Under the pieces are notes generated by a model, which made no database searches, was not told the origin of the DNA, and saw only the letters and a list, made by a program, of their open reading frames with translations. The translations under genes were made by a program, and so were the position numbers. A stretch of DNA of 63,857 nucleotides, the filler included, from Kipferlia bialata (lineage: Eukaryota), in NCBI GenBank assembly GCA_003568945.1. It is 6 parts of 6 records of this genome, joined end to end, with 100 filler letters (N's around TTAATTAATTAA, not from the genome) between each part and the next. Parts side by side here need not be neighbours in the genome. Positions count along the whole stretch, not along the records: positions 1 to 11,410 come from BDIP01001241.1; positions 11,511 to 22,912 come from BDIP01001242.1; positions 23,013 to 34,412 come from BDIP01001243.1; positions 34,513 to 40,878 come from BDIP01001244.1; positions 40,979 to 52,368 come from BDIP01001245.1; positions 52,469 to 63,857 come from BDIP01001246.1. One strand, given 5' to 3'. Shown one piece after another: positions 4,276 through 53,158 of this stretch; within the stretch, counting starts at the first letter, position 1, and every line of letters begins with the position of its first letter.

Positions 4276-5110
4276 GTGAAGGTATCCCTGAGGACCCTTC
4301 CAACAGCACCTCCCTGGCCATAGTGCCTGTATCTAGCCAGGGGTCCATGGTGAAACAGTACAACAGGTATATGGTAGTATATCTGTTGGATATACGTATC
4401 TATATTGTATATATATTGTATATATATCTATTGTGTATACGTATATTGATTCAATTTTGTATATTGTATATATGGTATATGTCTTCAAACCCCAAGTCTT
4501 GGTGAACGTTCCATCATACTGGATCTTGTATATCTATGTCTACCATATATATCTTTATGTATATATGAGTGTATTCATCAGACTCCATTCTGACCCCCAG
4601 CCTTGGGGACCGGTCCATCATACAGGACCTGTCTCGCAGGGGGGGAGAGGCAGAGAGAGAGAGAGAAGGCATACCGCAGACAGAGGACGAAACTCCAGTG
4701 GTGGTGAGTATTGCTGTCTCTCTCTGTATTTCTTTACTCCCTGCCCCTCTATTGTTCTGAGGCATCTCCCCTTACCCCTAGATGCGTGAGATCACTGTCC
4801 CCACCTTTGAGGCCTTGTGTAAGAAGATGATTGAGGAGGAGAAGGAGCACGAGACGCGGTTCACTATTGGAGGTACGATACCCACATATACTCCCGCCCT
4901 GCTATGTCTAAACATGTATGTATATATACACCTGACCCCCAGGGGAGTACCACCACATGGATTCATATATGTATATATGTATGTATATGTGTGTTAATGT
5001 ATATCATTAGTGTTGATTGTGTACATATGTACTGACCCCTAGGGGAGTACCACCACAAGGACTCCAAGACCACCACGTGCTACCATCGCTGCTGGTACTC
5101 GGTGAGTTAT

Positions 5111-5142
<32 letters not shown>

Positions 5143-7459
5143 GTCTTATTACATCGCTGCTGGTACTCGGTGAGTCTCTCTCTATCCAGCCAGTATCAGT
5201 GCACCATGCACTATCTCTCTCTCTCTCTCTCTCTCCCTCTCTCTCTAGCCCCTTATTCCAGGACTGCCAGTGCACCATGTCGTATGTCAAGAACACAGCC
5301 CAGAGCACTGATGACCTGCTAGACCACGAGGCAGGGTACAGTGTGCCACCCAAGCATGATGGGACGGCACCCGCTGCACTATCCACCCTAGAGAGCAGCA
5401 GCACCCTCTCCCAGGACACTGTCTCCTCCATGGTATACTCACAGGACTCGCCAGACAGGAAGAGAGAGAGAGAGAGAGAGGCAGAGCTACCACTCAGTAA
5501 TGTACCCATAGCACCTAGTGATGGTGGGAGTGCCATGCCCCCCGGGGTGCTTGGTGGTCAGTCCCCGGTGCAGCACAGCGTGCCCCCTTATGTCATAACC
5601 TTCAAGCACGAGCACACCAACCATGAAAACGGGTAAGGGGACTCTATATGTGTAGTATATATGACGTGAAGTGTCTTCACTGTATATATGAGTGTGTGAG
5701 TGTATCACGTTGTCTCTCACCCCCCAGGAGCCAACAGGCCAAGCGCGTGTACAGGTCAGAGTTCCTGAGACTCTTAGTATGCAGAGAGCTCAGAAAGACA
5801 CAGGTAGGAGTTTGTATATATCGTGTATATTTATCAAAGGTTGGTCGTCGAAGTAGCCACCTAACCCCAGACCCGGTCTGTTGTCCAGCTGGTCAAGGAC
5901 CTCACCAAAGAGTACAAGCTAGAGGGGTGAGTACAGGATATATATCTCTTCTACAGGCAACTGCCCCTATATGTGTGGTTTCAGACCCAGTTTCAGACCC
6001 ACTCACATATGAGTTAATGTGTATTCTATGAGATATGTAGCAGTGTCTCCCCTCACCCCCAGCCCCAACCGGTTCCTTAACCTGACGTCCAAGCTACTCA
6101 GACACTGGAGGGCCAAGGTATATATGTTAGTGTTATATATATATATGCCTCTACTGAGTATCTCTAACCCCTTAGGAGAAGGAGCGCCTGGGCGATGACT
6201 ACCACCGACCCCCTCTCTCTAAGGAGGCAGGGCAGGTGGCGGCATCAGTAAGGGAACTGGTAGGGTCAGCATCCAATGTGGCCAATGCCCTGAGGGGTAC
6301 TGTGACAAGTACAGGTGATGGTGTCGGTCCCACTTCCAATGTGGGCAGTAGCGCCCCTCCCTCCCGTGCCCCCACCCCCCTCACCGGCTCTGCCTCTGCC
6401 TCTGCCTCACCCTGTGACGCCCCCCCTACCATACATGTACCCTACCCACCATCTGGTCTCAACAGTATCACAGGGGGGGTGAGTGGGGGCATGACCCTAC
6501 CCCCTAGCAGTGCAGTGACGGACACGGCTATGTCTATAGGGGGTGTGGGTGCTATCCAGAGTAGTATCCCCTCCGACATGCCCCAGATGGGCCCTCATAT
6601 AGGCATGGCCATGGGTACCGAGGGGAAGGGGGAGAGAGAGGGAGAGGGGGATGGAGTGGGGAGAGCACAGGAGAGCAAGCGTGAGGCAGACAGTATTCCC
6701 GAGAACTCTGTGCCCTGGGTCATCCCGAGTCAGAACAAGTCAATGCAAGTCAATATGACCCTGGAACCGGCTCTGAAGAGACCCGCCCCCCCTGACATTC
6801 TGAGTCACGGTGGGATGTCTGCTGATAGTGGCCTCTCTGTCCCACCCCCAGTACCCACAGTGCCTACTGTTCCTCCTGTTCCTACTGTCCCTACTATTCC
6901 CAGTGTGCCCACTGTCCCTAGTGTGCATGGTGTGGCCTCCGCCCACCACTGTATAGTGCACCCACCTTCGGCGCCCACTCTACCCCATGCCCTTGCACCC
7001 TCTAGACCTAGACCCTCTAGACCCTCTAGGTCGTCCATGCCCATGTCCGTGAGTGTGTCTGTATCCACAATGCCTCTGGCTGAGCTGGGCCTCGACCCCA
7101 CCCTCCCCACCCCTCTCCCCTCCTCTCTCCCCTCTATGCCGACCGTCTCCCCCCTCGGCCACCCCGTCAACCCCCTCAGGGTCAGCCCTCCCCTTGCCCC
7201 CCCTCTGCCTATGCATGTGGGTCAGGAGATAGCCTCTAGGGGGGTGTCCCCAGTGCTCCAGCACATGGAGATGGATGCCATGGGGAGTATGGGAACAATG
7301 GGCAATATGGGTGACATTGGCACAATTGGGAGCATTGGGAGCATTGGGAGTATGGGTGGCATGGACATGGGGACCCTGGGTCAGATGGGGTTACCCACTC
7401 AGATTAGTCAGCCCACTCTAGTGCCCTCTAGACACCAGGGGTCAAATCGGCAGACATAG
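4276..7459 (+). CDS. WRKY/GCM1/FAR1-like C2H2 zinc-finger + helical domain protein with long Pro/Ser/Met-rich tail, 5'-partial; putative transcription factor
   Basis: Spliced translation ...PTFEALCKKMIEEEKEHETRFTIG|GEYHHKDSKTTTCYHRCWYS|DCQCTMSYVK-(~95 aa insert)-YVITFKHEHTNHENG|SQQAKRVY...|TRSVVQLVKDLTKEYKLEG|PNRFLNLTSKLLRHWRAK|, then a long terminal exon to TAG 7459. Confidence 0.55.
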
Positions 7460-7949
7460 ATTCAATTAATAGACTTAACCTCTTCGCTCTGGATACTAGT
7501 TTTCATACATGATTCACTATTCCAAGAGTATTACTGTGTGTGAACTATACAATAATACACAATACGGGTCTATTCACCGTCACAGATAACGGGACGCGTG
7601 TAGGTGAGAGTATCTGACCACAAGATGATATGCGTACCATCTCAGAACGGTAGATGGGCAGTACAGGAGTCCATAGAGTCCAGACCCCAAACACCATCTA
7701 CTGTCCCTGAACCACTTGTCTTGTACTGGGACCAGCTCTTACATCTTTAGCCAGACATGGCGGGTACACCTTGTGTAGTTGCACTGTAGTCTCATCACAT
7801 ATCTCCTCAAGGACACAGGCCATCAAGGCATGCACGGCCTGTGAGGGGATACAAGGTGGCTGATCTCTAGCTATGCATATACATAACACCCTGGACAAGC
7901 GATGGTGGATGTATGGACCGTTCTAGACAGCAAATTGAACTAGACTAGA

Positions 7950-8297: not shown

Positions 8298-8348
<51 letters not shown>

Positions 8349-11347
8349 CCCATATATACTGATACGTCACCACTGACCTTGATATCTGCCCCCACTCCCT
8401 CGTACTGTGCCATCTGGGCAGTGAGGCGCCTGAGGGGTGAGACATAGCATAAGAAGGCTCAGGATTCAATTCCTATCTCAGTCAATTACTATAGAACAAG
8501 CAACGTACTCGAGAGTATCCACTGCCTCTGATAGTGAGTGTGCTGCCCTGTCTGCCTCAGGCAAGGCTAGGGTGTACATGTCGGCATGCCCACTCTCTCT
8601 GTCTCCCTCTGCCTGTACCAGACCCCTCTCCCTCAGGGTGTGGAGGAGGGACCTGGGGTTGGTTGTATAGGAAGAGAGAGAGAAAGAGAGAGCGAAAGAG
8701 AGATTACCCCGGATGTGGAGGAGGGACCTGGGGTGGGGACATGTATCAAGAGAGAGAAGAGATACACATATAAATGAGAGCATGTACCTATACTGATGTG
8801 CACACCTCAAAGAGAGAAGAGAAGAGATAATATATAGGAATAAGCCCTTGCTGCCCCGTTTGTGTCATGACTTGTCAGGAGGACTCTATGTCAGAGAGAG
8901 AGAGAGTATACCTGTACTCCTGGGCACTCCTCCTGGCCCGTGCTGTGTTCCGTCTCTCTCTCGCCGCATGCTTCTCCTTCCTGTCCTCGCACTCCCTGCC
9001 CATGTCTCTCTCTCCCTCTGTCACGACACTCAGCGCAGATGCCAGGTCGGACAGGGCCTGGTTCTCTTGATGCTGGGGTTAAGACTAACTAACCATTCGA
9101 TTTAGTAAAATTGAGAAAGTGAGAGAGGGAGATGGAAGAAGAGAAAGAGATACACAGGTTCTCTTGCAGCTAGGTGTGTGTGAGAGACTAGTTGCAGTGG
9201 TACCTGACGATCTTTCTCTGCCTCGAGTGTCAGTCTCTCTCTCTCCAGGCCTATCATAGAGGACTCACACTGGGCTGGGGGTCAGACATATACATATACT
9301 ACAGTCATATCGAAGTAATGGTGACTATACTCTCATACAAATGATGTGCCACACATATGTGTAGACAGTACAATTGTATATACCTAGCACTGCCTGGACT
9401 GCCCTGTCTGTGGATGTGGACAGACCCACACATACATATACTAGTAGAGTATAACTATGTAATTAGTAGTAATTGTATATATATACATACCCAGCACTGC
9501 CTGGACTGCGCTGTCTGTGGATGTGGACAGACCCACACTGACTGCAGAGGCAGAGAGGACAAGGGCCTAGAGTGAGACAGGTGTATATATAGATAGAGAG
9601 AGAGAGAGAGAGAGATGCACTGACAGCAGAGTCAGACAGGACTAGTGCCTGTAATCAGATGTGAATTAGAATATCGAAAGCGAGAGATGCACACATATAC
9701 CTGCTTAGTGGCCTCTGCAGATTATTATATTTACATTATGCTATATTGTATTATTGAAATTATATATAACACTATATATTCACCTGCTTGGTGGCCTCTG
9801 CACTAATGACATCAGCATCTGTCTCCCCCTCTCCCTCTCCACTCTCTGACATATCAGGCACTGACACTGCCCCATGGGAGAGAGAGAGGGAGAGAGCCTG
9901 TATCTCCTCCATCAGCATGGCACTCTCACTCTCCAGAGAGAGGGTCTCTGCCGCTCTAGCCTAATATGTGAGAATGCACGTCATATGACATACATACATA
10001 TGTAGAGAGAGAGAGAAAGAGTACTCTCGAGAGAGAGGGTCTTTGCGTTCCTGGCCTAGTTTAGAGATGAATCATACTGACGCAGAGAGAGGGTATCTGC
10101 CCTGACATATGAATGCAATCAAGATGGTATTATGCCACTATACCCACACATTATACCCACCTCGAATGCCTCTCCCTCCACAGACAGGATGCCATCGGCC
10201 CTGGTCACACAGGCCTGGGGTGGGGGATATATATGTATATATATAGAGAGAGAGGCGGGGGAGAGAGAGAGATTCTTAGCTTGCCCTGGTCACACAGGTC
10301 AAGAGTTAGGGGGGTGTATATACAGAGAGAGGGGGAGATAACAAATAGCCACACAGGCCTGGGGTAGAGGACCACCTCTACATACATAGGAGGGGAGAGG
10401 TGGAAGAATTGAGATAAAGCATAACGAATATGTGAGGAAAGGAAGGGAGGGGAGGGGGTCGAGAGAGAGGGAGAGAAACTTCTTAGGTCATTAGTGCACT
10501 GTCTCTCGATGGTACATAGGACATTAGGCGGCACACGAAGTACGAAGACAGAGAGATGATTGAGACAGAGAACGGTACCGGTACCGTTATTGAATACAAA
10601 GTAGTGCACACATGACAGCTAGTCATGCACCTAGTCAGTAATATCAGAGAGCTTAGTAACAATATAAAGAGTGCAAGAGGATATCAGAGCACCATGAGCC
10701 AATACTATATATACTAGTACACTCTGGTACCGGTATCGGTACTGGTTTCTATACCTGTAATAGCTGTACCGTGGTATCATCTGCCTCCACACTCAGTGAC
10801 TCCACATGCACACCCAGCAGAGACGCAGCACCAGAGAGAGCCTCCTGCATTGTAGGGGGGTGTAGTATGGTGTATAGGAAGTGAGCGTACGTTAACTACT
10901 GACCATTTTGTGTCACTCAATGAACCCTCTCGCCCGTTCTGAGTTGATTGACATGCGTCTCTAAGGTCGTAGGTCAGTATAGGGGGAGGACTGTCAATAC
11001 ATACCTCAACTCCCTCCGTATCGCTCAGCAGACGGTTACCAAGAGCTCAGTTGGATAAGTGGAGGTATATTAAATAGTATGGATCCTTAAGGATAGTTTG
11101 GTACCGGTACCGATCCATGTACCATCACTTCATTATCATTTTGTCCTTACCTCAGTGACCATAAGGGATGTCCAAGCTCTTTGTGCCCCTCCGGTCCAAA
11201 GTGAGTGGCACCAGGGTTAGATACCAGGTGGGAATGGTACATATATACACTGACTTACATGTGTATAGGGGATTTGCCTCTCCTTACTTGGACCTACATA
11301 CCCTCCAGCGCTCCAAGACCTAGACATCTGTCCCGCACTCTCACCAT
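7950..11347 (-). CDS. multi-exon coiled-coil hypothetical protein
   Basis: Exons such as EALSGAASLLGVHVESLSVEADDTTVQLLQ, ARAAETLSLESESAMLMEEIQALSLSL, AQCESSMIGLERERLTLEAEKDRQ and TARRVLETETQRALDVQ with canonical splice sites; ends approximate. Confidence 0.55.
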
Positions 11348-11359
11348 TGTCGCTCTATT

Positions 11360-11410
<51 letters not shown>

Positions 11411-11510
11411 NNNNNNNNNNNNNNNNNNNNNNNNNNNNNNNNNNNNNNNNNNNNTTAATTAATTAANNNNNNNNNNNNNNNNNNNNNNNNNNNNNNNNNN
11501 NNNNNNNNNN
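11411..11510. other. artificial contig linker N44-TTAATTAATTAA-N44 (also 22913-23012, 34413-34512, 40879-40978, 52369-52468)
   Basis: Identical 100-nt spacer with a stop-in-all-frames 12-mer, repeated five times. Confidence 0.95.
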
Positions 11511-11638: not shown

Positions 11639-14027
11639 CTTCCGAGGTTCAGTCCGATGGCCTGTAGCAGGCCCCTCAGAGGGGCATTCTTGGAGTCCAG
11701 TCTGCCCATAGTATGGGCAACGGCAGCAGCTGGGGGTCAAGGGTATACTACAAAGTACTATACTACACTATACACTATACCCTCTCTCTCTCTATATATA
11801 TATACCCTATAATATACCCATACCTGACAGGGATGTGACCAGGTTCATGGGCAGTCTCTTGATCCACTCCACATTGATCTCCTGGGGGTCAGATGGGTGT
11901 GTGTATGAGATACGGTGTCAACAGAGTCCCACATATCACACTCATACTCCACACTCCCTACCCACCCCCACCTTGATAGTGAAGTACGATGAGTCAGGGA
12001 GTGCCGACAGTGGCTGCCCTATCTGTGTGCCCCTGGACTCCACCTCGGCCCATACAGTCGGCATCGTGTAGTCAGGCTCAATCATGTCGGGTCTGGCGGT
12101 GAGGTGTATTCACTAACATGATGTAGACACACACATAATTGTACACTAACATATCGACATAGATATACCCTCACCTGAACATCTGGAACTTGCCCCCCTT
12201 GTTTGTGACTGTCAGCAGAGACTTGAGGCAGTCCTTGACCAGGTACCCAATGTGGATAAGCATCTGCATGCCCTGGGGGGTTGGAGAGGGATGGTTATAC
12301 ACATAGCTACATATCTAAGACACATATGATGATTATACCCATGACATGACATATACATTGTATACATATAATCACTCGTATACCCACCTCGTTTGTCTCC
12401 TGCACACTGGTAGTGCTGCCCTTGTGGTTGAAGAAGGAGAGGTCCAGCACGGTCTTGAGGCCTGGGGGGTGAGGGAGTACCCATGAATATGTATACAGCA
12501 CAGAAGAGACAGTATGCATCCCGTACCGCTGAGTGCGAGTGTCTCTCTGACGGGTGTGTATATGGGTGCCAGGGTCAGGAAGGGCAGGGCTATCCACAGG
12601 GCCCAGGGGGCATCCGAGAACAGAGTGCGGTCAGCGCCTGGGTAAATAGGAGAGGAGAGAGAGAGAGAATACTCATATACATGCCCTACCTTCGAGCCCG
12701 TCTATCCTGCCTATGTACAGGTAGTAGAACAGGAGGGGCAGGGCCAGGGTCAGGATGATGGCATACATCATGTGGGAGAGATAGTCCAGGGGGGTGCGGC
12801 GCCTGGGGGTGAGGCACACAGGTATACATATACATGCAAATAGATGATGATGAATAGATGCAAAGGAGGAGAATCCACAAAACGTCTACACAACACCCCC
12901 ACTCACTTGATGTATGTGAATATGACTGTGATCAGGAGTAGGTTGACAGCCCATCCCGTGACGCTGAACACAATCCATGTCAGGGAGGGGTTGGCAGCCA
13001 GGATGACCATGCCCACGAAGAAGCCTGGGGGGAGGGGGGGGAGAGAGAGAGAGAGAGAGAGAGACGAGTGGAGAGAGTTATAGCAAAGAGATACATTCCT
13101 ACAGCCACCCACCTACAAACACGGCACTGAGGCTGACTGCCAGGAAGGACAGCCACCTCCCAAACATGAACAGGTTGATGATCCTGAGGGGTCAGGGGGG
13201 GGGGGAGGGGTAGATATCTCCTTGAATGGACATCACATATGAATATTTGAATGCACATCACATGTACCCACCTGAAGTTGCGAGTCCCCTTCATCCTCCT
13301 GTTGATGTTGACACTCAGTATCACTAGGGCCACGGACAGCACACAGATGCCGCCTGGGTGAGTGATGGATACATGCACAAGACACGAGAGCATATGTATA
13401 CACCCCACACACCTGACACGCTGATACCCGTGACAGCCTTGGACATGGTGACAGGCCTAACCTGGGGTGACACAGGAGGTGTTGGGAGGATAAAGATATA
13501 AGTATATGTATATAGTAACTACTGGATATAAGGATGTAGTAAGTACTGTAACCATGGCTAGATATATCAACACTGTACCTGTGCATACTCGAAGAGCACT
13601 GTGCATATGACGCCACTGACTATGAACCACAGGGCCAGGGACATCAGGAAGAACACACCGAAGATCATGGCTAGAGCCCCAACCTGCAGGGTTAGAGGGT
13701 ATATATATACATAGAGAGAGAGAAGGGGGGGGGGGGGCTGATAGACATTCATATCCGTACCATGATGATGAATCTCTTTGGAGCCCCACACAGGTAGGAA
13801 GGGGCAGACACAACCCTGGAGTAAGAGATGGGGGCAGAAGCTACACCCACCTAGGATATGCATGTACCCACCTGATATACGGATAGACGGTCTGAATACT
13901 AAAGAGTCTATATGGTATAGGATACACGTACATAAACTCATATATACTCATACCTGTTGTACACCGTCTGGAACACTGAGGGGTGCTCCAGGGGGTGGAG
14001 GCCCTTCTGCTCACAGAAGAGAGGGCC
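11639..14027 (-). CDS. multi-pass membrane protein (~6 TM) with C-terminal soluble domain; partial
   Basis: Spliced hydrophobic segments VGALAMIFGVFFLMSLALWFIVSGVICTVLF, GGICVLSVALVILSV, WLSFLAVSLSAVFVGFFVGMVILAA, LTWIVFSVTGWAVNLLLITVIFTYI, MMYAIILTLALPLLFYLYI and WALWIALPFLTLAPIY, then soluble GLKTVLDLSFFNHKG... Confidence 0.7.
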
Positions 14028-16026: not shown

Positions 16027-18654
16027 ATGAGTGAGGCTAGCCATGCATTGCAGAGCCGTCCCCGGACTGTGGACGGGGGTGAGTGAGGGAGTGTGTCTGA
16101 CCCTCTTGAGGACCCAGTCATCCTGCCCCCCTCCTTAGTGGGGGAGAGTGAGGTACCGAAGGGTGGGGCTGAGGCTGCCCCTGCCTCCCCTGAGGTCCCC
16201 CAGTACACCAAGCCCCGTGCTGTTGTGATGTCGATGGTGGCTACTATGCTGGGGTCCAGTCTGCTCAGCCTGTCATACGGGTACTCACAGGTAGGGGGAC
16301 GGGGAGAGAGAGAGAGAGAGAGAGAAGTATGCGATACTATACCTTGCGGTAACTAATACCTTCTACGATGGTGGTAGGAGGTACAGGAAGTGATTATATG
16401 ATCCATCCAATCATCCAATCAATCACCAGTCTCCTCACCTTCAGGCTGGTATCATCGGTGGTCCTCTGGTTGTGATCTTTGCGGCAGTCATCTGTGCACA
16501 GACAGCCATCCTGATTGTTAGGTACCAGTGTGTGTCTCTTACCCCAAGATATGGGACGTCTGATCTGTCTCTCCTCTCCCTTCTGTTCTGACCCCAGGAC
16601 AGGCGATGCCTACACCAGCGAGACTGGCCATGACGCAGTGGACTTCCCATCTGTGGCTGCACACTTTGTCGGGAAGTGGTACGTTCTCTCTCTGTATCCC
16701 TCCCCCTCCCCCTCTCACGCCATAGGGCCATTGGGGCAGTATTATATTATCAGTATCACATCTGATACTCTCTCTCTCCCCCCCCCCCCTCTCTCACCCC
16801 AGGGCCATTGGGGCAGGCAGTCTGGCCTCTCTGATTGTCCTGACAGGGGCATATATGGCATACTTGTACGTCAATCATTCAGTATCTGGTGTATAATGAC
16901 TGTACTTCCTCTCAGTCTCTATTTGTCTGTGGTCTATGATGTCTTCCCCCCACTCTATTACCTCTCTTTCCAGCTTCCTAACCCCCTCAGTGTATACATT
17001 GCCTCCTACCTGGGCAGTATCGGGACATGCTTCGGTGTGGAGGTGAGCATGATCCCATACTATCCTACTATAGTGGTCTGTTGGTATTCTCTTGTCCCCC
17101 CCTCACCATCCAGATCCCCTCCTACGTGTGTGTTGGTGTGGCCATTCTGACCCTTGGCGTCCTGTCCCTCCTTAGGGATGTGCGTAGACTGGTCTCCATA
17201 GCCCAGATGGGCATAGTGTTCACGGCCATCCTGTCTGGGGTGGTGGTGTTGACAGGCCTCAGGCACATCCCACAGCAGACATGCAGCGTCAAGGTATGAG
17301 GGTATGTATATACATATAGAGTGTAGGATATGGATACCCTGTCCCACCCCCAGGGCTATCTGTTCCAGAGGGGCGTGGCCAAGCTGTTTGGCATCACCAT
17401 CAGCCAGTTCATGCTGCACAACCTGCTGCTAGGTATATGGCTATTGTGGTTATATGGGTGTATGTGTATATATACTACTGATACTGATACTGATCACTAT
17501 CAGCCAGTTCATGCTGCACAACCTGCTGCTAGGTGGGTTGTAGTGTTATATCCGGTGTCGGTGTATCTGTATTCTATTGTCCCCCCCCCCACTCTAGGTG
17601 TTCTGAAGGGCACCCACCCCTCTGCCCGCACTGGCATCCTGAGGGTCACTCTGCTCTGTCTGTGCCTTGTCAATATGACTGTGGGCATGGCTGGATACAT
17701 GGGGTACAGGTGGGGAGGGGGGTGATTTACAGTGTACCATAGTTCTCTCTATGCATCCGGTGGGGCTCCTGAGACCCACTGGGTATGTTGATTGATAGTG
17801 ATTCTCCTTCTGTTCACATGCGTACTCCCTTATCATCCCTGATTCAACCTCTCACCCAGGTGTGAGGGTGTTCCCCAGAACTTCAGCGAGCTCTTTCCCC
17901 ACACCCCCATAGGCAGCCTCATATACGTCATACAGCTAGGTACGGACTGACATGAGTTATATTGTGTACACTGCACCATACTATCTCCCCCCTATACCAG
18001 TGTACATTGTCTGTCAATATTTGTACCCAATATATCCTCCCCGTTCCCCTTATCAATCCACCCCCAGTGTACATTGTGTCTGTGTTCCCTCTGCTGCAGA
18101 TGGTTGTGAGGGACAACATCGGGGGCCTGTACTTCTTCTACACATCCATGCGGGCTGAGTACACACCCCTCCCGGAGTCCTTTGAGGAGGAGGAGAGAGA
18201 GGGAGAGGGAGAGGGAGAGAGGGATGGCGACGTGGGAGACATTAGAGTGGAGGGTGGTGACTGTGGTACTGATGCCGATGCCCCCTCAGATGCTGAGCAG
18301 CCCAGAGCACGTACCCAGAGGGTTGATATCCTGATATCCGTCGTCATGCTGTGTATGGCGTCATTCATATCCCTCAAGTGCCCACAGGTCGGGGATATTC
18401 TCGGGTACGGCAGTGTATCTATTTGTATATGACTCTATCCATACTTCGGGTACCGAAATTGCTACTCCACTTGACCCCCTCTCACCCCTAGCATCTGTGG
18501 TGCAGCAGGTGGCCTGATCTACGTGTTCATCCTCCCTTTGCTGTGCTACAGGGCACTGGAGAAGAGGGAGCACAGGTGGAACCCGATGAAGGCAGTTGGC
18601 ACAGGCGTGCTCATACTGATAGGGGGGCTAGGGCTCTGTCTGCAGGCACTATGA
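16027..18654 (+). CDS. amino-acid transporter, AAAP/SLC38 (Aa_trans) family
   Basis: VVMSMVATMLGSSLLSLSYGYSQ|AGIIGGPLVVIFAAVI..., LSLLRDVRRLVSIAQMG, VGMAGYMGY, VGDILG|SICGAAGGLIYVFILPLLCY; about 10 exons. Confidence 0.85.
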
Positions 18655-21452: not shown

Positions 21453-21573
21453 CCTGTGATGGGTGTATAGAGTATGTATATAGAGTGAAAGGTCCTAAAC
21501 CCTTGATTCACTTGCTCAAACATGCAGCCCATGAGAGCACAGCAGACGTCTGCTCATTCATTGATCGTTCAGA

Positions 21574-34040: not shown

Positions 34041-34937
34041 TGTATATATATATATAGAGAGAGAGACAGAGAGAGGGAGAGACAGTCACGAAATAAACAA
34101 ATAGATAAGGGTTCCTGAGGACACTGATCTGAGCGCGAGGGGGAATACACATAAATGAGTATATATAGAGAGAGAGACTGCGAGACAGATAGAGAGACAG
34201 ATGAGAGATGAATAGGGTCACAATGAGAGGGCAAAAGACAGAGGCACGGGCTACTAAGAGAGCAGTAGGCAATATGTATCAGACATGTCTCTCTGACCAC
34301 TGTGGGACGAGAGAGAGTATAATAGAGACAAGTGGATAGATTGGAGACAGAGTGTGTATATACACTGTGTGGTGGGGGGGGGGGGGGGGTTTTCCCGGGG
34401 GGGTCCCGGGGGNNNNNNNNNNNNNNNNNNNNNNNNNNNNNNNNNNNNNNNNNNNNTTAATTAATTAANNNNNNNNNNNNNNNNNNNNNNNNNNNNNNNN
34501 NNNNNNNNNNNNTTTTTCCCCCCCCCCCCCCCCGCCCCCCCCCCCCCCCCCCCCCAACTACTCATTTTCATAAGCATATATGTATTCAGCTCCGTATACA
34601 ATTCCTACCAGTTTTGATGATTGTTACACTCTTCCCTTCAATGAATGATCTCTGGATGGTTATCAAGTGTGTGTTTGACAGTGGTTGTATATATATTTGA
34701 AGTGTATATACCTCATACCGTATCTTGTTAAGCACACGGTACACTTATATGCTGGCGGGTGGGATATGGCTCTGGCAGCTGATATATGTATGCATAGTTT
34801 CTATTTCATATTGTATGCACCAGATACTCTTGGCCCAGGGTGTCCTATGCCGCTAGATGGGGCATGTCTCTTATTCATGGCATGTGTATCTGGGTATATA
34901 TTCATACATATGTAAACAGTACGTATTCTAATACAAG

Positions 34938-36078
34938 GGTCTTCTATGCCGCTGGGTGGGGCATGTCTCTGACGTGTGTGTCTGCATCACACCTAGTGAC
35001 TGAGCCTGCTCCTTCTATACCCACTACTGATGCTGATACATCAGAGAAGGAGGGGGAGAGACAGCCTGTTGGAGATACAGGCAGAGAGAGGCAGACACCT
35101 GAGAAAGTGCAGCAGGGAGAGAGGGGGAGAGAGAGACAAAGACCAAGAGAGAGAGAGACAGAGGATGTGAAGACTACCCCTAAGCAGCCTGGTCGGCTGT
35201 TCTTCAAGGGAGTGCCCCTGCACTATACAGAGACAGACGGTACGTACATGATACCAATGCATATGTGTGTATAGCACACCACTCTATTTTTGCGGGGGGA
35301 TTGGTCTCTCTCGCTGTTGCAAGTAGCAGCACAGTATCTATTATGTACTGTCATCCACCCCTGCCATAACAAGGCCAAGTGCTTCTCTTGCATCTGACTG
35401 TCAGTGCGGAATATGATCCGCACCTTCATTGAGCGTGAGACCCCCACCTCCGAGGTGGAGGAGAGGGCATCTCGCATACTGGGGGGTATCAGCAACTTAG
35501 GTGACATCACTATCAGTAGCAGTATACGTATATAGTAACACTACAATATCTATATTGGTACTAATACATCAGTTGTACAAGGTATGGTCTTCGACGGGAA
35601 GGGCAAGGCCTACTAGTATTGTCATAGTACAACATATACTATTGTGATAGTGCTATAGATACTAACCCACTAGTCGTGCAGGGCATGGTCTTCGACAGGA
35701 AGGGCAAGGCCACCAACAGGAGGGTGAGGAATGGCAGGGTGGTCATGAGGTGGCAGAAGGGGGGGGAGATAGAGAGAGGGGACAGTGCACAGGAGGCCAG
35801 GGTCAGTGAGGGGTGCCACAGAGCAGGGGACATATACTTCAGGGACAGGGAGGTGGCTCAGGAGGCACTGCTCGTGATGAGGTATATATACCCACTTACA
35901 CCCACTTCACTATATCCATACCACCCAGATGTCAGCGTATATGTCAGTGTCGTGAGTATACCCCCCACCCCAGGTACCAGCGCATAGGCGATGCCCCCGA
36001 TGCACCTGAGCTACATGTCATGTGGTGTGATGCACACAAGACAGCAGACACTAAGGTATATACGGTATACAATATATA

Positions 36079-36112: not shown

Positions 36113-38631
36113 TAGTATAGACACACAAGACAGCTGACACTAAGGTAGCTATATTTACATGTTGTATTCGATATATGCCGAGACGGTATATTTTGGGTTC
36201 AACGTTATGTATCCACATACCCCCCAAGTCGGACACACTAAGGTGGGGGCGCTGATGGATTTCAAAGCAGTCGATCCGTAGCCATACCCCCATAATGTCA
36301 TCTCCCCACACATATTCACCTCTAGGGCAATGTGTTTGTGTCCCAGCTAGACCCCAATGTCTCTGCCCGCCAGATCTGTCAGGCCTTTGAGGGGCATGGC
36401 GGGGTGGTCTCGGTGAGGTAGGAATGGCCATATACGTACCATTTTTGACTGCTATACAGCACGCTATTAATATTTGTATATATATCATTCTCCCATAGAC
36501 CTTATCTCAGGGTGCTGCGCAGGTACTCTGGCATCCTGTGGGGTGCCTATGTACAGTTTGAGAAGGCAGAGGAGGCGGCCAGGGTGATAGAGACTGTCAA
36601 TGGAACAGTAGTGCTAGGTATCAGAATATATATATGTACTCATACATGACACCAGGCACAGAGGTCATGGTTATACTGAGACTGATTGTATCAGTATCAA
36701 TGTATATATATATGTACTCATACTGACACTAGGCACAGAGGTCAAGGTGGAGGCATATGTACCCACGCAGCAGAGGGTGGGGGGGAACAAGAAGGTATTC
36801 ACCGAGAATACTATGAAGGAGTCTCAATATATATTTTTGAGACTTGCTCTCTCTTCCTTTGTATATATAATGTATTGATACTCACCCCTAGGAGTGGGAC
36901 AATGTATCAGTATCTGTATCTGTATCTGTATATATGAATCTATGAGTCTAATCATCTCTATTGCGTATGTATTCTCACCCCCAGGAGTGTGACAATGTCT
37001 TTATCGACAACCTGCCACCTGGATTCACGTCAGAGGGTGGGTGGTATTGTGTACATGAGTATACATATCACTGTAGTGTGTATCACTATGCATTGTATTA
37101 TTTTTTATTATGCGCCTCAGAGTGTGGGTGGTAGTGTACATGGAGAAGTGTCACTGTAGCGTATGCCCCTATGTATAGTGATATTATACATCTCAGAGGG
37201 TGGTGTGTGCATATGTATCACTATGCATCAAGCAGAATAGTAGTATATGTTGCCTGATACCAGCTCTAAGGGTCCTCCTAGAAAAGCATGTGGGACCTAC
37301 CCTGTCAGTATATGCAGGGGTCGACACAAGGAAGGTATGAACTTGGGGAATCCACATGTATAGGATGTATATACTGCGTTGATGCAAGTATCATTACACA
37401 TACCCACCCCAGCATATTGGCCGTGTGTTTGGTTCTGCCAGGTTTGCCAGTCATGAGGATGCAGCTAGGGCCCTAGACATAGTGCCAGAGGTATTAGATG
37501 TAGATATATAGATATATAGAAGTATGCATGAGTATGCATATACACATGAGGATGCAGCCAGAGCCATGGACATAGTGCCAGAGGTAAAAGATGTAGATAC
37601 ATAGAGACATTTAGTATGCCTCTTTACACATTTGTATATATATGTGTGTGAATGATTCTCTTTATTCATAAGGATATATATATGTGTAATTGAACATAGG
37701 GTTAGGGTCGTATGCATTCTGGCAAAGGTATCACTACTCTTGGGACCGATTGGAGCCATCCCATGTTTATAACCTTCCAGATACCCTTGGAGGATGGCCA
37801 GACTCTAGTCTGTTGTCCCCACAGGGCAGCAGCACAGAGACAGCGAATGAGCCATGTATGAAAGAGTACTTCTATAGATTGTATATATATATATATTATA
37901 CAGTGGCAACGAGACAAGAAGAAGTCTACTGATGCTTCATTCAATATTGACGGAGTATGTATGACGCTGAATACACATATTGACACAGGATGAGGGAAAG
38001 GAGAGAGAGGCCCTCTTCTACGACTCGGGGAGGGGTGTGTTTGTGGTGGGCATAGGGTATGTAAAGTGTAATGTAATGTATATATATTAATTATAGTATA
38101 TATAATATCAGGTTTGGCCCCACCAAGGCACCCGTGGTCAGACTCATGACTGAGGCACTGCAGGGGTGTGGGCCAATTACCATGGCTGCCCTCTTTCCCA
38201 AGAGGAAACAGAGGCCAAGGATGGGCATAGTCGTCTTTGAGAGTCCGGAGAGTGCCACCAAGGCTATCGAGGTTGGTATATATTCTCTCGTCGTTGGTTT
38301 GTAGTGACAGCAATTGATATTTCTGCCCTTGCTCCCATCGTGTGTAGATGTGTTACTAACTGCAGACCCTGGATGGCACACTGATCCCCTCCGTGTGTTA
38401 GTGTCTGGTGTACTATAGCACTTTGGACATTGTATTACGTACTCTTATACTATAGTACTATAGACATGTTACTAACTCCAGACCCTGAATTGCACCCTGA
38501 TACCCTCCCTCAACATGAGTGCACCTGTCCAGGTGTGCAAGGCCCAGAGGTCCTGGTTTGACAACCCAAATGCCATCACCAAGACGGTTAGGAACTGCAC
38601 CGTGACACTTAATGGAGGGAATGGTTGCTAG
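34938..38631 (+). CDS. four-RRM RNA-binding protein, divergent PABP-like without MLLE/PABC tail; 5'-partial
   Basis: RLFFKGVP, GDIYFRDREVAQEAL, GAYVQFEKAEEAARVIETVNG, NVFIDNLPPGFTSE, FGSARFASHEDAARAL, GIVVFESPESATKAIE|TLN...VQVCKAQR; stop 38631. Confidence 0.75.
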
Positions 38632-40995: not shown

Positions 40996-42586
40996 TGTCG
41001 GTCCTGGTGGCAGCATGCGACACATTCAGGTACAGTTAGATGGGTATATAGATGGGTATATATAGGTGTGTATGCTAGTGGCAGCATGTGACACATTCAG
41101 GTATGCTCACAGTGATTGGTGTAACTATATCATGTATTCCTACATTTATGTAAAATTGTACATGCCCCTCACCCCTTAGGAGTGGTGCCGTTGAGCAGTT
41201 ACAGAAGCACTGCGACAGACTCAAGTGTGACCTGTACCAGCAGGGTGGGTGGATATGTATACCTACATATAGAGTAGAATATATATATCGATAGATATCG
41301 GTTTTTGTGTGACCTATACCAGCAGGGTGGGTGGATAACAGTGTGCATCTACATATACACTCATGTGTATATGTGCATCTTGTTGATGGAAGAGTCTGAT
41401 GTCAATACCACTGGCCCTGTACCCCCCCCCCCTCACCCCTAGGCTATGGCAAGGATGCCGCTCTGGTTGCCAGATCTGCCATTGTCAAGGCCAGCCAGAA
41501 CAAGCAGGTGGGGATGCATGGAGTCGGATATGTATATATGAATATGAATATGATACTGTATACCACTATACTGATCCCTAGGACGTTGTGCTCATTGACA
41601 CTGCCGGTAGGCTCCAGACCAACTCCCCACAGCTGCACGCACTGGCCAGGTATATGTCTGTGGTGGATATAGTATGTATACATCGAGTCGCAAGTCATGC
41701 ATGTGTGTGTATATGGTTATACCCACACCCAGGCGTGTGGCCACCATAGTATACCCATAGTGCATATCAATCATACATATCCACCGATATATGTTGCACC
41801 TGCATTTGTATATTCCCACCCCCAGGCTTGTGGCCACCAACCAGCCTGACCTTGTGCTGTTCTGTGGCGAGGCCCTGGTAGGCAATGACGGCATCGACCA
41901 GCTCCAGACATTCAACAGGTACAGATGATACAGATTGTGTATATGGTGATAGATATAGATATCCAAGATATCAACTCCTGTGCTCTCTATGCTTCCAGAC
42001 ATTCAACAGGTGGGGTGGGGTATATATACACTGTGCGTGCGTAGATGTATAGATATGGGTATAGATAGATGTTACTGAATATGTAGTACATACCACTTAA
42101 CTACCCCTGGTCTCTACCCCATTCTCATCCTTCTCATCCCAGGGCTCTCATTGACTTCTGTCCTCCCAAGCTGCAGCACCACGTGGTGGACGGAATCATA
42201 CTCACCAAGGTACAGTGTGACACTGATATACGAGTACATGTTTAGACATATGTGTATATGTATCTATATATATATACCCCTCCCTCCCTGACCCCAGTTT
42301 GACACCGTGGGTGCCAAGACAGGGGCTGCACTCAGCATGATATACAGCACAGGTGGGTGTACTATGTATATGTATGTTCATATATATATGTGTGTGTATG
42401 TACACTATAATATATATACAACACAAGTGGGTGTGATGTATTTATATATATATATGTATATATAGTATAATGTATACGTCACACTGACTGCCAGGCAAGC
42501 CCATAGTCTATGTGGGTGTGGGCCAGTCCTACCCAGACATAGTGCCCCTGGACGTGGACTTTGTAGTTGATACCCTGGTGGGCTAG
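40996..42586 (+). CDS. SRPRA: signal recognition particle receptor alpha subunit, NG GTPase domain; 5'-partial
   Basis: [97 protein letters not shown]; the GEALVGND and TKFDT motifs are eukaryotic SR-alpha type. Confidence 0.93.
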
Positions 42587-44769: not shown

Positions 44770-47700
44770 TCACCAGTGCGAGGGAGTTAGCCCCATGACC
44801 GTATATACAGAAGAGTGTAGTATCACACCCAGACTCCACTCCCGTGTGATATGGCCATGGTCATTATGAGTGTGTGTGCCTATATACACATCTGGACAGG
44901 TAGTGTTAATGGCAGCTGTGGTTCTACCTCCGTCTGTTCCTCCCCTTGCCCTTGCCCTTGACCTTCTTCACCTGGGGTGGGTATACACTGTAGTGTTATA
45001 CTAATGTACATAATACATGTATATATATATATATATTCATGTACATATATACACGCACATACTTATACATGTAGAAATACACACACATATATACCTTGAC
45101 CATCTTGCCCTGTTTCTTACTCTGTGCATTCTGCTGCTTGGTCAGAATGGCGTCAATGCCACCTGGGGTCAGAGGCAGTGTATACATACATGTATATTAT
45201 TATATATATATATATATATAAATACATACTTATGACATTGGTCAGAATGGCGTCAATGTCACCTGGGGTGAGTACATAGACACACACAGACACACACACA
45301 AGTATATATACCAGGGTGGGTCCGGATACATGGGAACGTTGAATTCACACACAGCTGAATGAGTCTATCTTCATTCTATCATGACCACATATACACATAC
45401 ATATATCCACTATACATACACACCCACCCACCCATCATGCCCACCATGGCTGTATATATGTATATATATCTATCTATATCTATATATACATCTATATAGA
45501 AACACCCACTCACCCATGACTGTGTATACACACACATATATATATACATATACAGCAATACATATACATACACTGTATATATACATATACATACCCATCA
45601 TGCCCACCATGGCCGTGTCGATCATGCCCAGGTTGGTCTGGAGGGTGAGGAGGGTGTATATGAAGTGTCAGTATCATATATATATGTGTGCCACATGATG
45701 TACAGGTATATCACCATAGAGATGTTATATCATCACCACACACATGCATATCTACATACCTTGAACTGCCTCTGCACCATCTTGTCCACACTGAATACAT
45801 ATGGTATATATACATGTATATTATATGTATATATATATGTGTGTGTGTGTATATATGAATCTATCTGCATACCTTGAACTGCCTCTGCACCATCTTGTCC
45901 ACTACTACTCTATATACATATGGTATATATGCATATATACACATACATACATACATATATATTTATGTATCTATATGTATATCTATCTCCATACCTTGAA
46001 CTGCCTCTGCACCATCTTGTCCACCTTGCCATTCATCTCAACTAGGACCTGGGGGTGAGGGTATGCATATAGGGATACTAGATGTATACATGTATGCATA
46101 CACACAGATCAGAGCCCGGATGGCAGCTCTCTAGCACAGATATAGAGGTACATATATATATATACATATATATATATGTCCATGTACTATCATGCACTAA
46201 GCATACCGAGCATAGACCAGATGCCAGCTCTGCCAGTTCCTTCATCTCATCCACACAGCACTCAAGGGCATCCTGACTAAGGGGTTAGACAGTGGGTATC
46301 TATTAGTATATATATAGAGGGGGTGGGTATAGTGTATACATGATACAGCACTCAAGGGCATCCTGACTAAGGGGTTAGACAGTGGGTATGTTGGTGTATA
46401 TATGTGGTATATATAGAAATATATACATGATACACATGATACAGTACCCCAGGGCATCCTCGCTGGGAGCGGGTGGATATATAGATGCACATAAGCGTCT
46501 GTATGGCACACATGATGGGTGAGCATTCATACATGTAAAAACAGACTCATACATAGCATACACCACATACTTGGTGATGTTCTGGTCCAGCTGTCTCATC
46601 CACTATGTTCATATATGTCTACTTAGTGTATACATATAGTAATTTTCTCATATGACTAGTATACCTAGTGATGTTCTGGTCCAGCTGTCTCATCCACTGG
46701 ATGTGTCTCTCTATCAGACGCAGGATCTCATGCCGCAACTCGGCCTGGGGTGAGGGGCATGGTATATACATATATACATATAATAGTAGTACATATACAC
46801 TACTAAACACCACCAAGCATACCTTGAAGCGTGCCTCTCTCTTGGGGTTGTACTTGGCCTTGACACTGGGGGTGAGGGAGGGGTATATATTGAGACACAT
46901 ATACGATGGATGTGTATGTATATATGCATATATATACAGTAGAGTATGTAAATAGGGTGCTTGGCCTTGGCACTGGGGTGAGGGGTATACATAGAGTATA
47001 GAGTGAACACGTACAACAGACATTCATATATTTATATATACATGGTGCACATTTCACCAAATGAGCTCTTGTTCCATGTTCTCTGCATATATATATAATT
47101 ACACACGCACACACAAATACATATGTATATACGCATTCCATACGTACTTGTCCCATGTCTTCTGCAGCTCCTCCTCAAAGGCCTCCTCCAGATACCTGGG
47201 GGGTCAGTATCAGTATGGGGTATATATATATCAGTATGGGGTATATGTATCTCCAGATACCAAGGGGGTCAGGGTCAGTATTGGGTCAGGAACACGTACA
47301 CAGAGTGACTGCTATACAATGCGCCCATATCTAGATATACATGAAATATTACAATGAGAGGCGCGCATAAGATGTATATAATCTCATCAGGTGCCGTCTG
47401 ACTGGTGACACAGCTGATATGGCAGGACTTCCGTGATAGTGAATCATATATAGAACAGAGAAATAACCTATGGATGTAAACACATATTCATGTATGCCAT
47501 ATGAACATGTATATATGGATATGGATATACACTTGTATTCATGCATGCCACGTACCAGAACTTGGTTGATGCCCTGTCGTCGTAGCACCTGGCCTTGACC
47601 TGGGGTGAGTGGCATAATCTATCACCTATATACAATAACAGAATTCACAGTATACTCGAAGGTGTGATATAGCACCTTGTCTTGACCTGGGGGGTGGGTG

Positions 47701-50057
47701 TGTGTAACACATAATACATTCGTATAGGGCGAGAGGGTAGACCTTAAAATATACTTATGTATTAACAATCAAATCAGTACACAATATATTGCAGGTGTGA
47801 TACACACCCACATATAGATATATACCATACCTCCTTGAGCCCGCCCTTGCCGTAGTAGATCTGGTCCCTGGGGTGAAGGCATGCATACATACGATATCAG
47901 ACACAGAGTGTAGACTCTTGATAACTGGTCACTGGTTATGGAGTATAGACCATATATACACTGTATTGTTACTGGCAACCCCAAGAACCATACCTGCAGT
48001 ACCCCTCGAACTCGTCCTTGGTGACATATACATATATGAACAACCATCTCTATGTCTCTGCACCATATATACTGTATATATATATATATATATATATGCA
48101 TCATTACCTGCAGTACCCCTCGAACTCGTCCTTGGTGACGTAGAAGTCCATCTGGGTGACTAGGTAGTCCAGGGTCATCTCCTCCCTCGATTGGGCTAGG
48201 GCTGGGGGTGAGGTATGTATATGTATATATGTGTGTATATATATATAATGTATATATATATATATGTATATATGTATATATCTGTATATCTGTATATATA
48301 TAATGTATATATATATAATGTATAATGTGTAATGTATACACATACATGAATTCTTCTCCCTAGACTGGGAAAGGGATGGGGGTGATATATATATATGGAT
48401 ACACACTCACCCTTGCCTCATCCCACCATGGAATGATAGATATAACTACACAGATGTGTATCTTTTGAGTGTGTTCAATAGAATACCCATATACACCCAC
48501 CCTGGTATCTAGTGCCGTATGACCCCCCTCCATGTGCTGTATACCCTCCATTGGGTATGCCGTTCTCATCTGATATGTCAGTGTCAGTCTATCTCATCTC
48601 ATCTCATTTACAACATACACAGTACTGTCTCTATACACTAATACACATCTACTACCTTCATATCTTGATCTATATACACTCTATTTACCCCCACCTGTCA
48701 TACATCCCAGTGGGGTGATAGGACTAGACACCATATCCCTCTCTATCAACTCTATCAATGTATATACATATATATGTATCCCTATCCATGTACATGTACT
48801 CTATCACTCCATACCCGTGGTCATACATCCCATGGGGTCATAGTCCCATATCCCTCTCCCTCTCTATACATAGAACCATCCATATTACTATCAACATATA
48901 TACTTCAGCTATCCATACCCGTTGTCATGCACCCCATTGGGTCATTGGGCCCCGGCATCCTAGAGGGGTCAGACACCATGGGCATAGGGACATTCTAGAG
49001 GGTGAGGGATAGGTAAAGGTATATATATATACATGAATATATATATATGTAGGTATGTATATACAATGGTCAGACACCATGGCCATCGGCATTCTACGGG
49101 GTAATATGATATATACAGGGTATACAGAGTACAAGTATATATGCAAATACCCACCGCATTCCTGGGCAGCCCTGTGATTGTGTCTGGGGTGTCTGGGGGA
49201 GGGCCCATCATGGACAGCATGGCTGGGTATGAGAATAGATATAAGTAATGCATACATGTAAATACATGTTGTATATAGTATGCGTATGGGCCCATCATGG
49301 ACATGATGGCTGGGGTCAGGGGAGGTATGTATATAATACATATATACTCACACACACACACACATATATATATATATACAGTATGAGTATGGGCCCATCA
49401 TGGACAGTGTACATATACATATATATATACATATATATCATACAGTACATGCATCCACACCCTCTCTGACCTGTGGGGGTATAACAGTGTACATATACAT
49501 ATAAATATACGTATATATCATACAGTACATGCATCCATACCCTCTCTGACCTGTGGGGGTATAACAGTGTACATATACATATAAATATACATATATATCA
49601 TACAGTACATGCATCCATACCCTCTCTGACCTGTGGGGGCATGTTTTCTGCCCCCTCCCCGCCCTGCATCATGGACAGCATCATGGCTGGAGGGTAAGAG
49701 AGAGGGGAATACATATATATACATAATCTATATATACACAGCATGTATACTACCATTTATGTACACCCTGCATAATGGACATCAGCATGGCTGTAAGAGA
49801 GCCATATCATGAATAGTGCGGCTGTATAGTGCGGCTGTACCACACCTCTCTTTATATCTCTATCTATGCCATACCTGCCAGCTGGGGTGGCATGTCAGGG
49901 GGGAAGGGGGTGTCTCCCATGCCTGGCAGGGTGAGGATGGTGTATAGCATAATGTAGTATTGTATATAATGCTATGAGTATACATATATACATACCTGGG
50001 GGTCCTGCATACTGTGGCTCCTCAGATGACTCAGAGTCACTGTAGTCCACATCGACC
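44770..50057 (-). CDS. hypothetical protein with ~20 short exons: Pro/Met-rich N-part and helical C-part
   Basis: VDVDYSDSESSEEPQYAGPP, AMLSMMGPPPDTPD, EEMTLDYLVTQMDFYVTKDEFEGYCR, YLEEAFEEELQKTWDK, AELRHEILRLIERHIQWMRQLDQ, KQGKMVK; ends approximate. Confidence 0.65.
49411..49638. repeat. near-perfect 80-bp tandem repeat (~3 units) spanning an exon end and donor
   Basis: tacagtacatgcatcca(c/t)accctctctgacctgtggggg recurs at 49441, 49521 and 49601. Confidence 0.9.
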
Positions 50058-51657: not shown

Positions 51658-52359
51658 GCCCCAGAGTGCCTCTCTCACCCAGCCCCGTACCACATACCAG
51701 CCCACAGCATCCGAGTACTTCTCAGGTATACTACTCTCTCTCACACTCGCTCGCGCGCTCGCGCTCTCTCTCCCCCTCTCTCTCCCCATATATATTCATA
51801 TATATGTATGTTCTCACCCCTAGGCCACACCCAGGCCATTGGACAGCAGCGCCTCTCTCTCTCTCTCTCTCTCTCTCTCCGCCTCTCTATGTATGTCTGT
51901 GTATACATTATTGTACATATACACATTCTCACCCCCAGGCCACAACCAGGCCATTGGACAGCAGCAGCTGGAGAGTGAGAGGTGAGTATTATACAAGAGG
52001 AGATGTATGCTATAGTGTGCTACCACATAGCCTCATTTGTATACTGAAGTCCAATGTGACTCTATATCTGATATCACATTCCCTCTTACACCCAGGCTCC
52101 CCTCCAATGTGACGTGCAATGTCTTTAGTACAGTTGTGTTTTTCTATATATTTCTATATAGTATATATATGTGTTTATACTCTTTCTTACACCCAGGCTC
52201 CCCTCCAATGTGACGTGCAATGCCAGTGTGTCAGTATTGTATCTTATATACATACTCATTTATATATAGGTACCTCTCTCTAACAGCTAGGCTCCCCTCC
52301 AATGTGACGTGCAATGCCCTGAGGGAACAGGTCAAGACACTGAGGCAGAGCATAGCAAG
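51658..52359 (+). CDS. fragment of a hypothetical protein (partial at both ends)
   Basis: PQSASLTQPRTTYQPTASEYFS|GHNQAIGQQQLESER|LPSNVTCNALREQVKTLRQSIAR with canonical splice sites. Confidence 0.5.
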
Positions 52360-52559
52360 GTATATATANNNNNNNNNNNNNNNNNNNNNNNNNNNNNNNN
52401 NNNNNNNNNNNNTTAATTAATTAANNNNNNNNNNNNNNNNNNNNNNNNNNNNNNNNNNNNNNNNNNNNCCTTTCCCCCCCCCCCCCCCCCCCCCTCCCTC
52501 TCCCCCCGCCAGTTCTGCCTTTGCTCTCTCTCTCTCTCTCCCCCCCCCCTCACCCCCAG

Positions 52560-53158
52560 GTCTGCCTTTGCGCTGTACCACCAGATCAGTGACATCAACT
52601 GGGACCTCAAGAGAACACGGACACGGCTGGTCGGGTGTACGTGGGTCTGTCCTCTCTTAGTACAGAATATAGTGCATAGTGTACATACTATACATATTTT
52701 TCTTTATGTACATATATTGTACATAGGCCTGGACTCCCTGAGTGTAAAGTATTCACATATATCTAACCCTGTCATCTTCTTGCCCTTCCATACTCTCTCC
52801 CCTCTCTCTCTATTCTTAAGCTTCAACTGCATCACGGAACTCTCCCTCTCTTATCCTCACTGTCTGGCTTATGACAACTCTCTCTCTATCTATGTCTAAC
52901 CCCCCCCCCAGCCTGTGACGCCACTATCTGTTTCTCTCTCTTCAGTCTCCATCTATCAGTCACCCCCCAGCCACTGACACCAGTGTCTTTCTCTCCCTCT
53001 CCCTCTCTCCATCTCATTATACTCCTCACCCCCCAGCCTATGACACCACCGAGGACAACCTCGAGATCAAGGAGCCCATCCCCAGGCCAGGGGACACAGC
53101 TGCTGAGTATGCACTGTGCCAGAGGCTCTGGGACCCAGTCAGGCACTACCAGGAGTGA
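52560..53158 (+). CDS. SPC24: probable kinetochore Spc24 C-terminal RWD-like domain; 5'-partial
   Basis: Exons 52560-52636 and 53037-53158 give SAFALYHQISDINWDLKRTRTRLVGSYDTTEDNLEIKEPIPRPGDTAAEYALCQRLWDPVRHYQE*; LYHQISxIxWD...G...LW at the protein end matches the Spc24 pattern as I recall it. Confidence 0.6.

Follow-up and report, generated by a model that had tools for sequence, protein, structure and literature searches.

Truncated exon copies in Kipferlia bialata introns diverge like working gene versions and may derive from recombination between diverged alleles

Kipferlia bialata is a free-living fornicate whose genome is reported to hold 124,912 introns (PMC5874029). We analyzed a stretch of 63,857 nucleotides of this genome (the window), made of six contig pieces with N-padded linkers between them, in which introns carry truncated copies of the neighbouring exon ends together with their splice sites. 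We call these copies echoes. They are genuine: each repeats one exon-intron junction head to tail, and junction-anchored ones occur in 48 of 127 introns, or about four in ten. Compared with their exons, they differ mostly at third codon positions. This codon-periodic divergence, which an initial annotation of the window had missed, is their strongest feature, and plain duplication does not yield it: two working alleles or orthologues would show such a profile. As most of the differences are at third positions, which are usually silent, the echoes probably remain from slipped recombination between diverged gene versions. The fuller proposal, that they were acquired from diverged alleles (or homeologues) through out-of-register recombination and then filtered by exon-definition splicing, has in our judgment about even chances of being right.

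All counts come from this window and rest on 19 curated gene models comprising 146 exons and 127 introns, with frames that are open once echoes are excluded. An unconstrained gene finder had first called many echoes mini-exons; these were removed by hand, keeping the frames open, and the set excludes gene g1 as well as first exons that were uncertain. Comparison of four echo-free models with deposited proteins gave 497/503, 513/513, 789/789 and 315/315 matching residues, the last protein having an exon more than its model. The g15 model lacks one 23-residue exon, identified by protein comparison at 48501-48569 (minus strand) and present in protein P0004, which raises the actual number of introns to at least 128; the intron DNA around it contains more short decayed repeats. 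Acceptors in the window have a branch-point-like motif a few bases 5' of a C-rich AG, and a comparable acceptor motif is known from other metamonads (PMC6679479). Three larger gaps and two small internal ones interrupt the window. Perfect repeats flank the two small gaps (26324-26405 and 32418-32560); these are likely scaffolding overlaps and not echoes. Contig ends are mostly long G or C runs (for example, 1-50, 11361-11410 and 63808-63851), where short-read assembly breaks.

Repetition in the window is local and direct. At distances of 80 to 120 bp, same-strand recurrences of complex 12-mers number about 200 per million pairs, versus 0.13 beyond 5 kb (approximately 1,500-fold), and no inverted 12-mer pair was found at 20 to 200 bp. 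Of 254 pairs of an exon with an adjacent intron, 62 gave a match, against 6/762 control pairs from other genes and 8/1112 non-adjacent pairs from the same gene. The detector returned 80 echo segments, 66 of them junction-anchored (27 donor and 28 acceptor junctions) and 64 of these 66 with GT or AG intact. No anchored echo had the wrong polarity, and reverse-complement matches numbered four. Both echo types coexist in seven introns, where chance would give about six (27 and 28 junctions among 127), and a one-step double insertion of both types was dropped for this reason.

These results bear out the initial annotation in describing the copies as direct, local and polarised, with acceptor pieces upstream and donor pieces downstream; all 15 coordinate pairs that it listed are direct repeats of 21 to 58 nucleotides (nt), 81 to 100% identical, and lie within a few bases of where it had placed them. 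Polarity is not an independent fact, since a head-to-tail copy across one junction that leaves the exon whole must land its acceptor piece upstream and its donor piece downstream. Other parts of the description had to be narrowed. Echoes were said to occur in most multi-intron genes and on all six contigs: they are present in 8 of the 12 genes with at least six introns and absent from the other four, and the sixth contig does carry copies, but short ones (21 to 23 nt with the acceptor motif) below the exon-only threshold. The length, given as 15 to 80 nt, is 14 to 59 nt with our detector, about 80 nt being seen once (24864-24944). Finally, the copies do not dissolve into microsatellite sequence as had been described; both ends of the similarity, at the splice site and the far breakpoint, are steps without fading.

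Echo content is uneven among genes (heterogeneity p 2e-5). The four genes with no scored echo, at 11639-14026, 18963-21453, 21574-22787 and 53617-58211, have 13, 7, 6 and 6 introns, and in the genes of contigs 3 to 5 half or more of the introns carry echoes. The counts are lower bounds, because older gapped remnants that are visible by eye fall below the score threshold. Old donor-type remnants of this kind lie at 13851-13900 and 19777-19795 (minus strand). The region 33720-34111, upstream of the model of an MFS gene, also remained uncounted; it holds acceptor-type echoes of the first modelled exon at 33824 and 33991, and a spacer-level repeat at 33939/34083.

The divergence between echo and exon was measured at the nearest anchored echo of each of the 55 junctions. 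Third codon positions differ at 73 of 435 sites (16.8%) and first and second positions at 36 of 867 (4.2%), a contrast that is alike in donor and acceptor types. The share of third positions (73 of 109 differences) compares with 0.454 in simulations of a neutral copy beside a frozen exon (p 5e-6), where the contrast is 1.65-fold, and the excess holds for acceptors alone (p 0.002) and donors alone (p 0.0005). Among single-base changes, 70 are synonymous and 50 are replacements, for an expected synonymous fraction of 0.41 (p 9e-5), and the differences are distributed 33:19:87 over codon positions 1, 2 and 3. The ratio of nonsynonymous to synonymous divergence (pN/pS) is 0.23, with a bootstrap interval of 0.14 to 0.38 over 59 families and a range of 0.21 to 0.27 when any one gene is dropped. 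The floor for a copy that was intronic from birth is about 0.5, because such a copy should collect random changes. CpG decay was rejected as the source of the synonymous changes, of which only 5 in 56 are CpG transitions. Echoes are overdispersed in their divergence (p 0.002), a pattern that donors of mixed depth would produce.

On the intron side of the copies, the picture is different. Identity falls from 95-99% at codon positions 1 and 2, and 85% at position 3, to 45-58% at intron positions +4 to +12 (control 25-46%), and this drop at the splice site holds also where the intron bases are not microsatellite. Spacers show a faint homology to the partner intron (median 0.59 versus 0.54 in the control, mean z 1.2), reaching 0.9 or more in 2 of 65.

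The public read-derived evidence consists of contigs at one 1.4-kb stretch of gene g8 (16800-18180, plus strand), from DNA run X1 and from run X2, whose RNA label is a guess with which its six GT..AG joints are consistent. Two of the six RNA-supported introns in this stretch contain an echo. The first (17433-17597) holds a donor-type echo at 17493-17534, with 40 nt of exon 17354-17432 plus GT and one synonymous difference; the second (17940-18067) holds a short acceptor-type echo of the exon start at 18068, found by eye below the threshold at 17996-18015. A check for assembly artefact at this locus found exon and echo both present in the DNA at single-copy depth: one DNA contig, 17405-17528, spans exon copy, spacer and echo at depth 496, with flanks at 467 and 483, and the 36-base core common to exon copy and echo is at 1000. 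The acceptor echo is contained in a single DNA piece of 676 bases. No joint skipping an echo and no alternative letters were found over 16800-18180 in the DNA contigs, a form of data that conceals rare forms. A collage of two alleles would need neither such a loop nor such a depth; the tested locus is not one. Of the 31-mers sampled from an echo-rich stretch of 7.4 kb, 97% are present in X1, which is possibly the source of the window itself. As to transcripts, one X2 contig contains all six joints, and those over the two echo introns excise the donor and the acceptor echo, using in both cases the splice sites that adjoin the whole exons. RNA contigs of this kind display finished products, so that recursive splicing, in steps through an intron-internal AG-GT site, would be visible in nascent RNA instead.

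The dimensions of the echoes are constrained. None of 55 spacers is shorter than 45 nt and none of 66 echoes exceeds 59 nt, whereas random duplications of the observed lengths would give such short spacers in 28% of cases and random duplications would exceed 60 nt in 31%. Repeat spacing is 68 to 136 bp in 51 of 55 cases, and spacer length is not significantly correlated with echo length or partner-intron length. There is no whole-exon copy among the 66 echoes, the largest covering 74% of its exon. Intergenic DNA, a hand-picked set of 7,260 bases, contains one repeat where the genic rate predicts about 19 (matches not being independent), in agreement with the earlier proposal of a junction-centred process. 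Generic local tandem duplication was rejected on this intergenic scarcity, the spacer floor and the echo-length ceiling. That the process builds intron sequence, as also proposed, fits the median intron length of 232 nt in the 50 introns with a match, versus 95 nt in the 77 without.

How splicing avoids the echoes is not a matter of signal strength. Some echoes had been credited with the better consensus, and indeed 14 of 34 donor and 14 of 32 acceptor echo sites score above the site in use; on the whole the two are comparable, 14 being higher and 17 lower in each class, and weak echo sites were rejected as the cause of skipping. A partner splice site near the far end of the echo was found in 2 of 32 acceptor-type and 0 of 34 donor-type echoes. 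Since a strong upstream acceptor is bypassed, the data point to exon definition (as in PMC8724738) as the explanation, in a fornicate with a reduced spliceosome (PMC6679479). Echoes likely persist since splicing ignores a short half-exon with a single splice site. They do mislead gene callers, including annotation at contig ends. Deposited protein P0002 starts with residues from an acceptor-type echo and its spacer, read in another frame (34837-34908).

Capture from a diverged allele could proceed as follows. If two alleles have introns that no longer align, exons would be their sole homology for repair or crossing. A strand paired in the exon, with an unmatched intron tail, might then re-prime or be joined about 100 nt out of register, and the product would be the exon, a partial intron of allele A, the exon end of allele B and the whole allele B intron, with the mirror image at an acceptor. 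Assuming exon definition, mis-splicing would lead to the purging of any copy that exceeds about 60 nt, spans the whole exon or has a spacer below 45 nt; existing echoes could multiply by ordinary tandem slippage, and introns would grow by accretion. Single-exon queries for three genes returned one K. bialata protein each (100% identity, one member), and, with no surviving paralogue for these genes, an allele, or a homeologue since lost, would have been the donor. Among DNA contigs aligned at 90% over 16800-18180, no second diverged copy was found. Fornicates are described as devoid of non-homologous end joining and of Rad51A, as having two Dmc1 paralogues, and as probably dependent on homologous repair; direct observations of sex are lacking in Metamonada, though Hap2 and Gex1 are retained (PMC8516963).

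Several observations weigh against allele capture. Neither a second allele nor a second strain was found, the DNA being in only two runs of one sample, and two scans of metagenome contigs for another strain (P0001; P0002) found no relative; the donor is thus an inferred one. Acceptor-type echoes taken alone have 29 synonymous to 34 replacement changes and a pN/pS of 0.39 (0.21 to 0.75), compatible with a neutral copy. Differences between echoes are 11:12 (p 0.017), with the excess coming from one locus; elsewhere they are 4:11, which is neutral-like. The increase of divergence toward the junction is not significant (p 0.2), breakpoints lean only weakly to alternating bases (p 0.07), and retention of GT/AG, significant if echoes drift by 0.10 per site (p 1e-4), is not so at 0.04 per site (p 0.10). 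The 45-nt spacer floor is accounted for only post hoc. Lastly, divergence on the intron sides greatly exceeds that at synonymous sites (approximately 0.2), which needs extra slippage or codon constraint.

The foremost alternative, which we consider rather unlikely, is that echoes are 'mirages' of the ordinary kind known from amphioxus: slippage or unequal sister exchange would duplicate about 100 bp over a junction, splicing would filter the products, TA/CA-rich spacers would mutate fast, and conversion between echo and exon would keep the cores alike. It gives polarity with no special mechanism, and echo introns are indeed richer in TA/AT steps (0.28 versus 0.20). There is also one clear young case, a triple of 80-bp units at 49404-49639 (minus strand) in which exon end, donor and spacer are all 97% alike, the one ordinary mirage-type minisatellite; this triple and some second copies are ordinary tandem slippage, and the neutral look of echo-to-echo changes outside one locus agrees with such an origin. 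What it does not provide is the observed pN/pS, as we reason that conversion in cis would leave the floor of a neutral copy in place; the intergenic scarcity of repeats and the collapse of identity at the splice site, which non-repetitive intron bases show as well, also tell against it. An undescribed process that makes or keeps the copies, such as repair linked to transcripts or the spliceosome that makes the intron side anew, or a hidden frame-respecting function of echoes, seems to us improbable: the step at the splice site, the spacer minimum of 45 nt and the tight repeat spacing are sharper than a recombination slip predicts, yet spacers retain their faint homology to the partner intron, and no such route yields the synonymous bias unless a second functional version exists.

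Coding-type divergence and strong splice sites would equally follow if echoes were remnants of whole duplicated exons, both long used in alternative or mutually exclusive splicing and recently truncated or still present in minor transcripts, and a naive gene finder does parse several echoes as in-frame mini-exons. Long joint use, however, predicts many intact pairs, of which there are none; partner sites are missing, the RNA contig skips both echoes and the four deposited proteins fit echo-free models, so that we hold this origin to be very improbable. A merging of a heterozygous cell's two alleles in the assembly, which would also predict synonymous bias and unlike introns, and for which the allele-like divergence and the artefactual identical repeats beside two small N gaps (26324/26379 and 32418-32560) could be invoked, is hardly credible given, at the one stretch covered by read-derived contigs, the continuous exon-spacer-echo contig with its depths and no skipping joint and the undivided acceptor echo, and given the 31-mer content of X1.

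Returning to capture from diverged alleles, a broader view can be put forward, tentatively and with chances slightly short of even. Tens of thousands of K. bialata introns would archive other alleles, each echo being a recombination scar between lineages about 20% apart at silent sites; one clonal metamonad genome would record recurrent sexual or parasexual exchange, introns would be rebuilt by allele accretion, and the sizes that survive would map exon-definition rules in a reduced spliceosome. If this is true, a genome reported to hold about 125,000 introns (PMC5874029) is a large, datable sample of past inter-allele exchange that can be tested computationally, and a record of gene exchange in a group without observed sex; it would also reveal an added route of intron growth, linked to recombination between diverged alleles.

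On the plus strand, exon 5043-5101 has an acceptor-type echo at 4932-4961, whose acceptor outscores the used one, and a donor-type echo at 5152-5175, and exon 23340-23403 has an acceptor-type echo at 23242-23277. Exon 24687-24820 is accompanied by two acceptor-type echoes of about 50 nt each (24436-24615) and two long donor-type echoes, each with a terminal GT (24864-25083); its end thus exists in three diverged in-frame versions, and the two donor echoes differ from each other by seven single-base synonymous changes, one replacement and two multi-base codon changes. Further along are an acceptor-type echo at 35553-35610 of exon 35674-35881 (RRM protein), a donor-type echo of exon 37413-37490 at 37545-37599, whose spacer can be aligned (z 4.1), and a donor-type echo at 41075-41103 in an SRP54-type GTPase gene. 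Exon 52291-52359 has two acceptor-type echoes of 26 and 28 nt (52084-52224), with no difference and with acceptors that are both stronger than the used one, and exon 53037-53158 has two short acceptor-type ones (52904-52982).

On the minus strand, exon 9566-9491 has a donor-type echo of 48 nt (9380-9431) and an acceptor-type echo (9618-9650) with four synonymous differences and one replacement. A donor-type echo of 58 nt at 28410-28469 copies exon 28617-28535 with an unlike intron side, and its five differences (28412-28469) are all synonymous, as are all four in the 47-nt acceptor-type echo of exon 32108-31974 (32165-32228, differences counted over 32165-32211) and all four in the donor-type echo of exon 48994-48919 (48808-48841, counted over 48815-48841). 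A stack of six donor-type echoes of exon 30402-30334, in an MFS transporter gene, occupies 29790-30286, with near-identical cores and unlike TA/CA-rich spacers. The remaining donor-type echoes are one of 46 nt at 31620-31668 (exon 31811-31739), one of 52 nt at 33535-33588 with one synonymous difference and only 4 of 12 matching bases after the GT, two of 30 nt at 45749-45902 without difference (exon 46048-45995), and one at 47991-48028 (exon 48201-48108). Also on this strand, 58506-63620 encodes a protein some 1,600 residues long that has an FHA domain at its N-terminus and a very long tail rich in Glu and Ala; there is only one intron in that span.

The initial annotation knew of no named mechanism for these copies, but their structure has already been described as the mirages of amphioxus, in Adh3, troponin C, the globins BflGb6 and BflGb9, and PGBD5 (PMC3087553, PMC3902484). 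As described there, mirages likewise repeat an intron-exon boundary (5' or 3') in direct tandem, often keep AG or GT and leave splicing undisturbed; they are minisatellite-like units alike over their whole length (81 to 100% in BflGb6), with copy numbers unstable between haplotypes or cells, and concern single genes. K. bialata echoes, by contrast, occupy 48 of 127 introns, mostly as one or two copies, with coding-type exon divergence and nearly unalignable intron parts; likeness over exon and intron part together is found only at 49404-49639. What is new with respect to mirages is that the copies behave as diverged functional versions of a junction. Beyond the mirage papers, we found no description of Kipferlia echoes or of allele-derived intronic exon copies in the literature covered, which excludes most subscription papers, and the string 'duplicat' is absent from the main text of the K. 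bialata genome paper (PMC5874029).

The gain of introns through tandem duplication, as reported (PMC2891723, PMC4974935), also involves short tandem duplications, which in a potato case cross an intron-exon boundary, but it creates a new intron or exon, whereas in K. bialata mRNA and intron positions are unchanged and the old intron grows. It does not account for the echoes, given the single RNA joints over both echo introns and the protein matches. Cassette or mutually exclusive exons do not fit the scarcity of partner sites or the largest copy at 74% of its exon, nor do introner elements, which form dispersed families of similar introns, fit repeats as local as these, both at distances beyond 5 kb and in the other-gene control. 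Aborted synthesis-dependent strand annealing, or template switching with microhomology joining (one-sided invasion, fork stalling and template switching/microhomology-mediated break-induced replication, FoSTeS/MMBIR), produces short direct tandem copies by out-of-register re-priming; such events are generally held to use the sister template and give identical copies, while in K. bialata the template would be a diverged homologue. As to splicing, Reed and Maniatis reportedly found in 1986, with duplicated splice sites and truncated exons, that a site beside a short exon piece is passed over for the site of the whole exon. Their constructs are said to have been artificial and mammalian; K. bialata offers a natural set in a fornicate with short introns, and with it a natural experiment on how a short-intron spliceosome chooses between equally strong splice sites.

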